From NCBI GenBank assembly GCA_001768735.1, contig MEMB01000002.1, forward strand, positions 556,696-620,695: 64,000 bases of DNA, in the 5' to 3' direction. A model generated the notes under the pieces. The model ran no database searches. It had not been told where the DNA came from and was given only the letters and a program-made list of their open reading frames with translations. Within the stretch, counting starts at the first letter, position 1. Each line of letters begins with the position of its first letter. The position numbers were made by a program, and so were the translations under genes. Origin of the DNA: Alphaproteobacteria bacterium GWF2_58_20. GTDB lineage: Bacteria; Pseudomonadota; Alphaproteobacteria; UBA1247. Shown here piece after piece: positions 49,965-59,923 of this stretch.

Positions 49965-52900
49965 ATGAGTGACACCAGCGGCATGATCACAGTTGACGGC
50001 AACGAAGCGGTTGCCTCTTCCGCCTACCGGATGAACGAGCTTTCCATCATCTATCCCATCACCCCCTCTTCCTCCATGGGCGAACACGCCGACGATTGGT
50101 CGTCCAAAGGTCGCAAAAACCTCTGGGGCGTGGTTCCCGGCGTTGTGGAAATGCAGTCTGAAGCTGGCGCAGCTGGTGCCGTACATGGCGCCCTGACCTC
50201 CGGGGCCATCACCACCACCTATACCGCATCACAGGGTCTCCTCCTGATGATTCCCAACATGTTCAAGATCGCGGGCGAACTCACCCCCTTAGTGATGCAT
50301 GTCTCGGCGCGGGCCATTGCCACGCATGCCCTGTCCATCTTCGGCGACCATTCCGATGTCATGTCCTGCAGACAGACCGGCTTTGCCATGCTCTGCTCCG
50401 GCTCCCCGCAGGAAGGCCATGACTTTGCCGCCATTGCGCAAGGTACCACCTTCAAGTCACGCATCCCGTTCATGCATTTCTTTGACGGTTTCCGCACCAG
50501 CCATGAAATCAACAAGATTGCGCCCCTGTCCGATGACCAGCTCCGCGCCATGATCGATGCGGAAGACATCAATGCCTTCCGCGCCCGCGCCCTGACACCG
50601 GAAGCGCCATCCATTCGTGGCACGGCGCAGAACCCCGACGTCTTTTTCCAGGCCCGAGAAGCCTGCAACAGCTTCTATGATGCCTGCCCCGGCATCCTCC
50701 AGCAGATGATGGACCGTTTTGCAACGCTCACGGGCCGCGCCTACCACTTGGTGGATTATGTGGGCCATCCGGAAGCTGAACGCGTCATGGTCATCATGGG
50801 ATCCGGCGCGGAAATCGCCCACGAGACGGTGGAATTCCTTGCGGCCAAGGGAGAAAAGGTGGGCGTGGCCAAAATCCGCCTCTACCGCCCCTTCCCGGCC
50901 GGGGAACTGCTGGCCGCCCTTCCGGCCTCCGCCAAGTCCATTGCCGTGATGGATCGCACGAAGGAACCGGGCGCCACTGGCGAACCCATGTATCTGGATG
51001 TCGTCTCCGCCTTTGCCGAACGCGGCGGAACCATGCCCACCATCATCGGCGGACGCTATGGTCTTTCCTCCAAGGAATTCACGCCCGCCATGGTCAAGGC
51101 CGTGTTTGATGAAATGGCCTCGGCAACCCCGAAGCGCCACTTCACCGTGGGCATCAACGATGACGTCACCCACCTGTCCCTTCCTGTGGATGCCAGCTTT
51201 GACATCGAACCGGACAATGTGGTGCGGGCCGTATTCTACGGCCTTGGCTCGGACGGTACCGTCGGCGCCAACAAAAACTCGATCAAGATCATTGCCGAAG
51301 AAGGCGATTCGTTTGGCCAGGCCTATTTTGTCTATGATTCCAAAAAATCGGGCGCCATCACCACCTCGCACCTGCGCTTCAGCACCCATCCCATCCGTTC
51401 AAGCTACCTCATCCACAGCGCGCAGTTCGTCGCCTGCCACCAGTTCCCCATGCTGGAACAGATCGATGTTCTGGGTATTGCGGCACCGGGTGCCACCTTC
51501 CTGCTCAATGCCCCCTTCCCCACAGAAGACGTCTGGGGACATCTCCCCCGCGAAGTGCAGGATGCCATCATTGCCAAGAAGCTCAAGGTTTACGTGATTG
51601 ATGCCACCAACGTGGCCCAGGCCAACGGCATGGGACGCCGCATCAACACCATCATGCAGACCTGTTTCTTTGCCCTGGCGGGCATCATGCCGCGCGATGT
51701 GGCCATTGAAAAGATCAAGAAATCCATTGAAAAAACCTATGGCCGCAAGTCTCATGAAATCGTGGAGAAAAATTTCAAGGCCGTGGATGACACCCTTATC
51801 CACCTGCATGAACTTTCCATCCCGCAGGAAGCCAGCTCCACCCATGGCCGCCGCAAGCCTGTGCCCGACACGGCACCGGAATTCATCCGCAAGGTTACCG
51901 GGGAAATCATTGCCGGACGCGGAGAAACCCTTCCGGTCAGCGCCTTCCCGGTGGATGGCACCTGGCCATCCGGCACCTCACGCTATGAAAAACGCAACCT
52001 TGCCCTTTCCATTCCCCTCTGGGATCCGGAACTCTGCATCCAGTGCGGCCGCTGCGCAATGGTGTGCCCGCACGGTTGCCTGCGCACCAAGGTGGCGGAT
52101 GCCGAAACCGTGGCCAAGGCCCCGGAAGGTTTCCGTTCAGCCGACTTCAAGGGCAAGGAATTTGGCGAAAACCAGAAGTTCATTGTCCAGATTTCCCCGG
52201 AAGATTGCACGGGATGCACCCTCTGCACCGATGCCTGCCCGGCCAAGGACAAGACAAATCCAAGCCGCAGGGCCATCAACATGGAAGAACAGCTTCCGGT
52301 GCTGGAACGCGAGAAGGCCAACTGGGCTTTCTTTGAATCCCTGCCATCCGTCCCGCGTGACAAGGTTGCGCTAACCCCCAACCGCATCATGCTGCTGGAA
52401 CCGCTGTTTGAATTCTCCGGTGCCTGCGCTGGCTGTGGTGAAACATCTTACATCAAGCTCATGACGCAGATGTTCGGTGATCGCGCCATGGTTGCCAATG
52501 CCACTGGTTGCTCCTCCATCTATGGTGGCAACCTGCCCACAACCCCCTATTGCATGAATGCGGAGGGGCATGGTCCCGCCTGGGCCAATTCCCTGTTTGA
52601 GGACAATGCCGAGTTCGGGCTTGGCATGCGTGCCGCCTGCGACAGCAACACCATGTTTGCGCAGGCACTTGTCCGCACCCTCTCCGAAAAGATCGGTTCC
52701 GATCTGGCGACGGCCCTTGTGGAAGCCGTCCAGCTTGATGAAGCCGGGATTGCGGCCCAACGGCAGCGAATCAAGACCCTCAAGGCGCGCCTGGCCGGAA
52801 TGGGTGACCTCCCCGAGGCCAAGACCCTTCTCTCCATTGCCGACAGCCTTGTGCGCAAGAGCGTATGGATTGTGGGAGGAGATGGCTGGGCCTATGACAT

Positions 52901-57986: not shown

Positions 57987-59923
57987 AAACAATTGCCCGC
58001 ATTCTCGCGCCCCTTGCCCGCATCCCCGCCGGCATCACCCTTCTGGGCGCCATTGGCATCATCGCAACCTTCACGCCATGGGGCCTTGCTGCCAATGCTG
58101 TCCGCTGGCTGGCTTTTTCCATCTTTTTTGCCGGATGCGCCTTTGAAATCGGCCGCAGGTTCAAACCAGGCTGTGTCCTGAAATTTGATGCGGTGGACTT
58201 TTCCGCCATTGCCTTTGTGGCTTACGCCATCCTGAGCATTGCCTGGTCTGCAGATATTTCCCAAGGACTGATTTCCGGCATCAGGCTTCTGGCGCTCCTC
58301 ATGGTTTTCCTGCATATCCGCAGCCATGCGGCGGATTTTGCCATGAAGGCCGTCGCGCCCATTGCCATTCTCGGCAGTCTCATCACGCTGGGATTCACCA
58401 TTGCCTTCCCGGATTCCTTCGGTGGATTTTTTCAGGAAAATTTCTCAACCGAAGCCTATCTTGCCCTGCTTCCCTATCTTTTCATGTTCACCGCCTTTGC
58501 GGGCAGCATGGCTTTCCGCAAGGAAACCCGCAGCATCGCTGCCATCCTGGCAACCCTGATGGGGGCACTCCCCCTTGCAGGCATCCTCATCTACCTGCTC
58601 GCCTTCAACGCCAGCAAAATTGAGCTGTTCATCCTGCCGGCCCTTGTCTTTTATGCCTTCCTGCGGTTTGACATTTTCAAGCTTGGCCGCAAACGTTTTG
58701 CCGCAGGCGGTATCCTTGTCGTTGCCGCATTTGCTGCGGGCGGCATGCTGATGCCCCACATTCTGGCAACCCCTTCCATCAATGTTCGAGTCCCCCTTTG
58801 GGTCAACAGCTTCTTTATGTGGATGGATGCCCCCATCCTTGGCCATGGCCTTGGATCTTTCCGCGCCACCTACCCCCTGTTTGGGGAAAGTTTCGCGCAG
58901 CTTGTCGGCCTTGGCTTTGAAAGCCAGACCCGGGGCGGAATCATTGGCGACATGGCCCACAATGAAGGCCTTCACCTGATGGCAGAAATGGGCATTGCCG
59001 GCCTCAGCCTTGCTATCGCTTTTGTGGCTGCGGCATTCCTTCACCTGCGCACCCGCAAAGAACCCCTGAGCCTGATGCAGGAAGCGGCTGCCATGTCTCT
59101 GCTGGCCATTCTCGGCATTGCCGCCATAGAATTTCCCTTCCATGTCCCGACAACCGCTTTCATTGCCACCATCTCCCTCTCCATCCTTCTGGCTGGAGAG
59201 GACAGGATCATGGCCAGCCTGCCCCTGCCCGACGCCTATCCGCGTTTCATGGCCCGCCTGCTTCTTGCCGTTTTCTCCATTGGCCTGATAGGCATGTCCT
59301 GCCTGGATCTGCGCGCCAGCATTCACTTCAACCAGACCAAGATCCTCATGGGCAGGGGATATGGCGAGGAAGCCTTCCGGGAACTGGATGCTGCCCGGCG
59401 CATCTGGCCGCTGGATTCCAAGCTGCGCTCCCTGCTTTTCCCAACCCTCATGCGTTGGCAGCGCCTGTCAGGACTTCGCTACGGGACGGATATTCCGCTT
59501 GAATTTTACCCGGAAAACGTGGCAAAAATCCATGAAATCAGCTTTCAGGCCACCCCCCATGACAATGGCATCCTCAATGATTGGATGCGTTACCTCATCA
59601 TGTCGATGGTGTTTGAAAACACACCTGAAAAAACCCGGGAAATTGAAGAAGGCCTCAAGACCCTGAAAAACCGGGCAAAACTGGATCCTGACACATGGGT
59701 GACGGAAGGGTTTTATGCGCTTGAAACCAAGGACATTCCGCGCGGCCTTGCTGCCGTGGAAAAAGGCCGGGCCCTTGCGGAGGCAGGAGACCTGCTGGAT
59801 GCAACCGCACGGGAAACCATCCTCAAGCAGTTCCGGTGGATGGAAGACAGCCTGTCCATAGGACAAGCCGTTCCGGCCAACATCTGGAAAGACCGCAACA
59901 ACCCGGCCAACAATCCAAAATAG
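57983..59923 (+). CDS. O-antigen ligase/polymerase (Wzy_C)-like polytopic membrane protein with a C-terminal TPR-like soluble domain
   Basis: About 12 transmembrane helices. 'APILGHGLGSFRATYPLFGE...MAHNEGLHLMAEMGIAG' is the Wzy_C/O-antigen-ligase motif. C-terminal ~180-aa helical repeat region. 4-nt overlap (ATGA) with the upstream flavoprotein gene. Confidence 0.6.
   Translation: MKTIARILAPLARIPAGITLLGAIGIIATFTPWGLAANAVRWLAFSIFFAGCAFEIGRRFKPGCVLKFDAVDFSAIAFVAYAILSIAWSADISQGLISGIRLLALLMVFLHIRSHAADFAMKAVAPIAILGSLITLGFTIAFPDSFGGFFQENFSTEAYLALLPYLFMFTAFAGSMAFRKETRSIAAILATLMGALPLAGILIYLLAFNASKIELFILPALVFYAFLRFDIFKLGRKRFAAGGILVVAAFAAGGMLMPHILATPSINVRVPLWVNSFFMWMDAPILGHGLGSFRATYPLFGESFAQLVGLGFESQTRGGIIGDMAHNEGLHLMAEMGIAGLSLAIAFVAAAFLHLRTRKEPLSLMQEAAAMSLLAILGIAAIEFPFHVPTTAFIATISLSILLAGEDRIMASLPLPDAYPRFMARLLLAVFSIGLIGMSCLDLRASIHFNQTKILMGRGYGEEAFRELDAARRIWPLDSKLRSLLFPTLMRWQRLSGLRYGTDIPLEFYPENVAKIHEISFQATPHDNGILNDWMRYLIMSMVFENTPEKTREIEEGLKTLKNRAKLDPDTWVTEGFYALETKDIPRGLAAVEKGRALAEAGDLLDATARETILKQFRWMEDSLSIGQAVPANIWKDRNNPANNPK

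Follow-up and report, generated by a model that had tools for sequence, protein, structure and literature searches.

A pyruvate oxidoreductase gene cluster joining two widespread flavoprotein families in an uncultured alphaproteobacterium

Electrons drawn from pyruvate by pyruvate:ferredoxin oxidoreductase (PFOR) can reach NADP+ through flavoproteins in more than one way. In eukaryotic pyruvate:NADP+ oxidoreductase, PFOR is fused to an FMN/FAD/NADPH reductase, and Helicobacter and Campylobacter possess a PFOR-flavodoxin-FqrB route to NADPH. Here we analyzed a 64,000-nt stretch of DNA from Alphaproteobacteria bacterium GWF2_58_20 (hereafter the window, within which all coordinates are counted), in which four consecutive + strand open reading frames (ORFs) at 49.9-59.9 kb encode a PFOR, a dihydroorotate dehydrogenase (DHOD)-like FMN protein, an Nfn-like fusion flavoprotein and a Wzy-like membrane protein. 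With moderate confidence, we read this cluster as a lineage-specific operon through which low-potential electrons derived from pyruvate would be delivered to NAD(P)H. The likeness to the two systems above would be one of function only, PFOR electrons passing via a flavin carrier to an NADP+-reducing flavoprotein. The folds differ, with a flavodoxin-like domain and an FNR-type reductase there versus a TIM-barrel FMN protein and an Nfn-type Fe-S flavoprotein here, and the window PFOR, unlike the eukaryotic enzyme, is not fused.

Two bacterial operons come closer in gene content. Transcription unit TU3296 of Synechocystis consists of nifJ (sll0741), sll0743 and sll0744, the last annotated as "DHOD (fumarate)", and is induced under microoxic conditions (PMC11368403). 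In Propionibacterium, PFOR is co-transcribed with a DHOD-annotated gene and a GltD/NfnB-like oxidoreductase, and a bifurcating complex that resembles Nfn, handles ferredoxin and is possibly quinol-linked was proposed there (PMC7650540). The Synechocystis operon lacks a GltD-like gene, and in Propionibacterium the accessory genes flank PFOR, whereas both follow it in the window; either operon can be likened to the window by annotation only. All parts of the window cluster come from known families, two of them uncharacterized, and a similar trio has thus been noted before in Propionibacterium.

The cluster opens with nifJ (49965-53531, + strand, 1188 aa), which encodes a single-chain pyruvate:ferredoxin (flavodoxin) oxidoreductase, and continues on the same strand with the gene for the DHOD-like FMN TIM-barrel protein (53543-54562, 339 aa, PRK07565 family), the fusion gene (54585-57986, 1133 aa) and the gene for the polytopic Wzy-like protein (57983-59923, 646 aa). 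The first three genes are separated by 11 and 22 nt, and the stop codon of the fusion gene overlaps the Wzy-like start by 4 nt (ATGA). Longer alternative starts at 49902, 53528 and 54531 were rejected because they disagree with the family alignments. This spacing, already pointed out in a preliminary description made from the sequence alone, is real: the closest relative, a single sequence present on two metagenome contigs (loci L002/L003), matches the window in all four genes, in their order and in the 4-nt overlap. The proteins of the two operons are 83% (PFOR), 78% (DHOD-like), 62% (fusion) and 66% (Wzy-like) identical, so the arrangement has been retained and is no chance juxtaposition.

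The first gene encodes a standard single-chain NifJ-type PFOR. Its product matches TIGR02176 with 1769 bits (cutoff 911) over model positions 1-1166 of 1167, and all expected Pfam domains are present, namely, POR_N, PFOR_II, POR, EKR, Fer4 (2x[4Fe-4S]) and TPP_enzyme_C. The 339-aa protein encoded next matches NF005741 (PRK07565, "dihydroorotate dehydrogenase-like protein") with 391 bits (cutoff 303), the match spanning residues 4-329 and model positions 5-330 of 335. Alignment to Lactococcus lactis dihydroorotate dehydrogenase B (DHODB) shows that the FMN motifs VKxSP, FNRF and GGV are kept, and K170, N197 and G246-G247-V248, which align to these DHODB motifs and are predicted to bind FMN, are invariant in 15 family members. 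The active-site loop, in contrast, reads ELNLNIFAANP in the window versus ELNISCPNVK in L. lactis DHODB (5ksw_A), with a family consensus of ELNVYxxATDP. In true DHODs the catalytic base is a Cys in class 1 and in dihydropyrimidine dehydrogenase (DPD), and a Ser in class 2. In the window, Ile and Ala stand in for the catalytic Cys of the SCPN loop and its neighboring Asn, and the family consensus has Tyr and a variable non-Asn residue there; as judged from the alignment, the catalytic base and the substrate-binding Asn of DHOD and DPD are absent across the whole DHOD-like family.

These residues bear directly on whether the FMN protein could form, together with the GltD-like module of the fusion protein, a dihydropyrimidine or dihydroorotate dehydrogenase of the PreT/PreA or DHODB type serving pyrimidine metabolism. 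The FMN TIM barrel, the PyrK-like FAD/[2Fe-2S] module and the GltD-like 2x[4Fe-4S]/FAD/NADPH module are indeed shared with DHODB (PyrD-PyrK) and DPD (PreT-PreA), and there are weak matches to the PreA, PyrD and PyrK models, all of them far below the cutoffs. Besides the replaced catalytic Cys and Asn, however, the 339-aa protein contains only two cysteines and has no Fer4 match and no C-terminal 2x[4Fe-4S] ferredoxin domain of the kind found in PreA and DPD, and therefore cannot be a PreA/DPD-type subunit; the earlier statement that the two proteins together hold all the cofactor modules of DPD falls on this point. Furthermore, the conserved neighbor of its gene is PFOR rather than any pyrimidine gene, which again sets it apart from DHODB and DPD. 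We consider a role in pyrimidine metabolism hardly credible, and a true DHOD or DPD identity of the 339-aa protein was ruled out given its unconserved catalytic loop. Lacking the catalytic Cys and Asn, the DHOD-like protein would instead be an electron-transfer or accessory partner of PFOR. Separately, all 15 aligned DHOD-like proteins share an invariant C-terminal motif, RCPDP...R.NY, whose single invariant Cys (C310 in the window, at nt ~54470) lies outside the canonical DHOD barrel motifs.

The partnership with PFOR is visible in the genomic surroundings of the DHOD-like family, which were examined in 80 metagenome loci plus three look-ups in Acidobacteria and Nitrospirales. A PFOR 3' end lies directly upstream of the DHOD-like gene, on the same strand, in 59 of the 66 loci that offer at least 300 nt of upstream sequence, with gaps mostly of 0-100 nt, and the pair also occurs in metagenome-assembled genomes (MAGs) of Acidobacteria and Nitrospirales. 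No neighbor other than PFOR recurs at the DHOD-like loci. A GltD-like or fusion-like gene was found downstream in none of the 38 loci with at least 3 kb of downstream sequence, and a conserved GltD-like partner of the family, sought over the 83 loci, turned up in none of them and was discarded as a candidate. With PFOR upstream in 59 of 66 loci and no GltD-like gene in 38, it is PFOR together with the DHOD-like protein that forms the conserved unit. An Nfn-like gene is appended to this pair only in the small lineage formed by the window and its closest relative; each of the two modules is widespread, and only their joining is rare. The FMN protein had been proposed to be an extra substrate-reducing subunit of the fusion protein, a proposal weakened by its conserved association with PFOR and by its missing DHOD catalytic residues. 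In two acidobacterial loci (L084 and L086), genes for a GAF-domain histidine kinase, a sigma-54 activator, a thioredoxin and a single-domain response regulator lie upstream of the pair, a set that hints at sigma-54-dependent regulation of PFOR and its DHOD-like partner in that lineage.

Sequence, profile and fold searches agree on the third protein, which we regard as a single-chain homologue of NfnB-NfnA extended at its N terminus. It begins with an all-helical domain (54585..55244, + strand, residues 1 to ~220; Pfam PF27156 RP005_N region), followed by a helical Fe-S domain of the NfnB/GltD/DPD type (55257..55700, + strand, residues ~225-372) that is predicted to hold 2x[4Fe-4S] and contains seven invariant cysteines (Cys240, 243, 251, 275, 315, 318 and 322). 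What had been described as an N-terminal domain of ~370 aa with no recognizable motif is in fact these two domains. Next come the NfnB-like FAD and NAD(P)H Rossmann domains (55701..57029, + strand, residues 373 to ~815), with the motifs VLVVGQGPAG and VIGGGLTAID and a helical insertion at ~575-640 in the NAD(P)H part, and the protein ends with an NfnA/PyrK-like FAD and [2Fe-2S] module (57072..57986, + strand, residues ~830-1133). The [2Fe-2S] motif of this module, C1065-x5-C1071-x2-C1074-x17-C1092, has four invariant cysteines. The GGGLTAID motif is found in 80 of 83 fusion-family loci and is intact in the window.

The assignment of both halves holds across methods, as the preliminary description had proposed for a NfnB/GltD-like module fused to an NfnA/PyrK-like one. 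Fer4_20 (weak, under the cutoff) and Pyr_redox_2 (above the cutoff) cover residues 273-570, and PyrK/NfnA-like profile matches span 832-1121. Searches with phmmer retrieved 5jca_L for the NfnB-like half and 4ylf_A and 5jca_S for the NfnA-like half. In Foldseek, the NfnB-like half gave TM scores, normalized to target length, of 0.77 to 5jfc_L and 0.73 to 4ylf_B, and the NfnA-like half gave 0.80 to 5jca_S, 0.78 to 4ylf_A and 0.65 to PyrK (1ep1_B); the scores against NfnL/NfnB and NfnS/NfnA (0.73-0.80) exceed those against GltD or PyrK. AF2 folded the full-length fusion protein into a compact model (pTM 0.87, mean pLDDT 83.9). Like NfnAB, the window protein combines the Fe-S helical domain, the FAD and NADPH Rossmann pair, the PyrK-like FAD module and a C-terminal [2Fe-2S] Cys motif. 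Unlike NfnAB, it has its NfnB-like and NfnA-like parts joined in that order in one chain, carries the ~220-aa helical N-terminal domain and the helical insertion in the NADPH domain, has four Cys in its [2Fe-2S] motif and has lost the Gly-rich loop of the NfnA-like part.

This loop is the most distinctive feature of the window copy. The family motif GGGLGNA, which aligns to the GGGVGIA loop of Thermotoga maritima NfnA in a profile alignment, is replaced by SEGASCG (57414..57434, + strand), a degenerate dinucleotide-binding loop within the NfnA-like module, and a deletion of ~15 aa follows downstream at ~57550-57600. Of 83 family loci, 82 have the Gly-rich loop, the window's own locus being the only one without it, and the closest relative, with the same operon, keeps both the loop and the ~15 aa. 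The 1133-aa protein is identical in independent assemblies, so the loss is no assembly error. The window copy is otherwise intact, including the FAD-side residues RLQN and GxSS, the [2Fe-2S] cysteines and the whole NfnB-like half. If the family works as a classical bifurcating Nfn, the window copy probably no longer uses NADH at its NfnA-like site. Relaxed constraint could account for the loss, and so could a change of partner.

The domain combination and order of the fusion protein had been called unusual, and a domain search had been named beforehand as the test capable of refuting this; the search placed the protein in a common annotated family. Its top NCBIfam match is PRK06567 (NF005128; E 1e-221, 738 bits, residues 5-948), below the equivalog cutoff of 1072, a model whose product name is [quoted passage not shown] and which appears under that name in published annotations of Ehrlichia and of a rickettsial endosymbiont. 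With a word-indexed search, 7722 proteins were retrieved at E<=1e-10, the best 120 of which are full-length (1148-1201 aa), ~52% identical and all equipped with RP005_N and Pyr_redox_2; they come from Azospirillum, Rhodocista, Skermanella, Stellaceae, Burkholderiales and Gemmatimonas. PF27156 RP005_N has a precomputed match on the window protein and on all 120 of these homologues. A pattern scan over one genome per species yielded at least 595 confirmed relatives (595 of the 600 matches listed), and among the matches listed the relatives belong to Alpha- and Betaproteobacteria, Acidobacteriota, Planctomycetota, Zetaproteobacteria, Binatia and Rickettsiales. Full-length identity of ~50% to hundreds of homologues supports membership of the window protein, as far as sequence can tell, in the wider PRK06567/RP005_N family. 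The size of this family, together with its existing NCBIfam and Pfam models, ruled out a novel fusion.

Fused Nfn homologues of this general kind have been described. Liang et al. 2019 distinguished a "Pattern C" in Actinobacteria, Alphaproteobacteria and Gammaproteobacteria and flagged it as uncharacterized; it is a single gene, ~200 aa longer than the other fused forms, with the a-FAD, NAD and [2Fe-2S] domains placed C-terminally, and is exemplified by Mobiluncus curtisii ADI67453 (PMC6405883). The PRK06567/RP005_N family, matched by this described architecture, is probably Pattern C: the window protein shares with it the NfnB-then-NfnA order, the extra ~200 aa and the occurrence in Alphaproteobacteria. 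Its linkage to PFOR, unlike these features, is not a general trait of the family.

From these parts, a route for the electrons can be proposed. PFOR would oxidize pyruvate and reduce ferredoxin or flavodoxin, possibly via the DHOD-like FMN protein, which would act as its own conserved redox or accessory partner. The Nfn-like protein would then take up these low-potential electrons via its two [4Fe-4S] clusters and pass them to the NfnB-like FAD, which would reduce NAD(P)+ at the intact GGGLTAID site. The net outcome would be pyruvate-driven formation of NAD(P)H, with the reverse direction, toward pyruvate synthesis, also possible. The role of ferredoxin:NAD(P)+ oxidoreductase, which the preliminary description had put forward, remains the best reading of the fusion protein in light of its Nfn-like sequence, profile and fold. 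The genes, their spacing, the folds, the cofactor motifs and the conservation statistics are observed, whereas the scheme infers which way the electrons flow, that ferredoxin carries them between the enzymes, and any association of the proteins in a complex.

Several observations weigh against this proposal, the first of them from the genomic neighborhoods of the fusion family. For 80 genome loci, flanks of up to 10 kb were scored against the PFOR, DHOD-like and Wzy-like proteins of the window, and none of the 80 has any of the three genes nearby. Since the family is unlinked to PFOR and also occurs in Rickettsiales, its core function must be independent of PFOR. Second, the fusion protein is more diverged between the window and its closest relative (62% identity) than is PFOR (83%), and this faster divergence could reflect relaxed constraint. 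Classical NADH-dependent bifurcation is doubtful in the window given the lost loop. Co-transcription of the four genes is deduced from their spacing, and literature searches for a characterized member of either the DHOD-like or the fused Nfn family found none.

The neighbors that the fusion family does have in other genomes favor the proposed electron-transfer role. Its gene lies directly after cysNC in 8 of the 80 loci (L009, L018, L033, L034, L038, L039, L052 and L064), usually with cysD, cysH and sulfite reductase further upstream, which suggests that the family supplies electrons for sulfite reduction where CysJ is absent. In four other loci (L029, L051, L055 and L075), a 7Fe FdxA-type ferredoxin with a DUF3470 tail is encoded immediately upstream on the same strand and is a candidate redox partner of the family. 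The association with cys genes or ferredoxin is direct in 12 of 80 loci, or 16 of 80 when weaker proximity is counted, and these neighbors fit electron transfer between NAD(P)H and ferredoxin or ferredoxin-dependent enzymes, a reaction that behind PFOR would proceed from reduced ferredoxin toward NAD(P)H. In the eight cysNC-linked loci, which belong to Rickettsiales MAGs, Nitrosomonadaceae and other proteobacteria, the fusion-family gene stands last in a run of sulfite reductase, cysH, cysD and cysNC.

Such neighborhoods also lend some weight to a reading in which the adjacency has no functional meaning, the fusion protein being a housekeeping NAD(P)H-to-ferredoxin reductase that came to lie after nifJ by chance, as did the Wzy-like gene. 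The absence of PFOR from all 80 genome loci and the recurrence of the fusion gene beside sulfate-assimilation and ferredoxin genes both agree with it, and the unrelated Wzy-like gene is coupled just as tightly, so tight spacing needs no shared function. Against it, gene order and short gaps have been kept while the proteins diverged to 62-83% identity, PFOR, a DHOD-like gene and a GltD-like oxidoreductase are also neighbors, and co-transcribed, in an independent actinobacterial lineage (PMC7650540), and a PFOR that feeds a ferredoxin-oxidizing enzyme makes coherent redox logic. On balance, we regard chance adjacency as a rather unlikely explanation, though one to be reckoned with.

In a further alternative, the three proteins form a physical complex, either an analogue of pyruvate:NADP+ oxidoreductase or a bifurcating or confurcating enzyme, with the FMN barrel docked on the PyrK-like [2Fe-2S] module. 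The barrel would bridge the Fe-S chain of PFOR to the flavoprotein or, in another variant, bring in a third substrate such as quinol/quinone, as proposed for Propionibacterium on the grounds of co-transcription and co-regulation (PMC7650540). PyrD-like and PyrK-like modules are present and adjacent in the window, their genes are tightly spaced in an order kept in the relative, and the loop was lost exactly in the PyrK/NfnA-like module, where its loss would be tolerable if another partner fed that branch. Elsewhere, however, the presumed subunits live apart: in 38 of 38 loci, the DHOD-like gene and PFOR have no GltD-like gene within 3-10 kb of them, and the fusion family occurs without a PFOR or DHOD-like gene in 80 of 80. 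The nearest relative, moreover, has the same operon and keeps the loop, so the loss is not tied to the linkage. We consider such a complex improbable. Joining all of these threads would yield a bolder picture, in which the FMN barrel docks on the NfnA/PyrK-like branch, as PyrD does on PyrK, and takes the place of the missing NAD(H) site; together with PFOR and the flavoprotein it would make up a three-protein pyruvate:NADP+ oxidoreductase or confurcating machine, PRK07565 would be a previously unrecognized dedicated redox subunit of PFOR across many phyla, and the RP005/Pattern C family would be a main ferredoxin:NAD(P) link in aerobes including Rickettsiales. As a whole, this picture strikes us as quite improbable, and the lineage-specific operon described above remains our preferred reading.

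What the locus offers is a meeting point of two large families of uncharacterized function, the PFOR-adjacent DHOD-like protein and a ~1150-aa single-chain Nfn-like flavoprotein that ranges from soil Acidobacteria to Rickettsiales. The window adds no new kind of part. Together with the Propionibacterium trio, its operon leads to the testable hypothesis that both families handle the low-potential electrons of PFOR, and the data from Propionibacterium and Synechocystis make both families accessible to such tests. Knowing their function would improve metabolic models of microaerophiles, cyanobacteria and propionibacteria and might explain electron exchange between ferredoxin and NAD(P)H in aerobes.

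The Wzy-like protein had been described as an O-antigen-ligase-like membrane protein with a TPR tail, and the first half of this description probably holds. About 12 hydrophobic segments lie in residues 1-441, with a loop or gap at ~262-337, and are followed by a soluble tail of ~200 aa. The window protein itself scores 21.7 bits against Wzy_C (PF04932), below the cutoff of 31.7, and a word-indexed homologue search returned only the protein itself. An exhaustive HMMER search found 725 distant relatives, many of ~600 aa and matched over their whole length at 25-33% identity, and all 10 phmmer relatives tested (E 1e-54 to 1e-32) pass the Wzy_C cutoff with 33-50 bits. Most simply, on these profile matches, the protein would be a divergent member of the O-antigen-ligase family. 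The TPR tail did not hold up: searches of the window protein's tail gave no match to a TPR family, and a weak TPR_14 match appeared in one relative. The best relative (33% identical) is encoded among unrelated housekeeping genes, and the Wzy-like gene is kept with the same overlap in L002/L003 only. It is probably an incidental, translationally coupled neighbor.

On its upstream side, the cluster faces a divergent gene that ends at 49731, with a divergent intergenic region of 233 nt in between, and downstream it meets a convergent gene (60006-61097). A candidate sigma-70-like promoter, TTGCAA-16-TATGAT, lies upstream of nifJ (49866..49893, + strand) and agrees with the consensus at 9 of 12 positions; the number of promoter-like sites in the consensus scan does not exceed the shuffled expectation, and this site is a candidate only. 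A terminator scan found none in the short intergenic gaps, the total of such sites being below the shuffled expectation, and Rfam and tRNA scans found three tRNAs and nothing bearing on the operon. The wider context is that of an ordinary chromosome, with topA, dprA, aspS, a P-type ATPase gene, purC, secDF and an NAD kinase gene. In metagenome data, the window lies within a JGI contig of 244 kb. Copies of the proteins at NCBI come from MAGs named Rhodospirillaceae bacterium and Alphaproteobacteria bacterium GWF2_58_20, where they are annotated as "dihydroorotate dehydrogenase-like protein", "pyridine nucleotide-disulfide oxidoreductase" and "hypothetical protein".

A few observations were made elsewhere in the window. 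Divergent from nifJ, four consecutive minus-strand ORFs (44310-49731) encode proteins of 778, 185, 332 and 437 aa, for which Pfam gave nothing informative beyond Big_5/He_PIG on the 778-aa protein and a match to DUF7263 below threshold. All 2-kb bins of the window (1-64000) have a negative GC skew, so that the window lies within one replichore with no switch point. The G+C content falls to 0.49 in a patch at 30000-32000, compared with ~0.56 elsewhere; this patch contains a 332-aa minus-strand ORF (30658-31656) with a RamC_N domain, adjoining a response-regulator/GGDEF gene (28812-30179).

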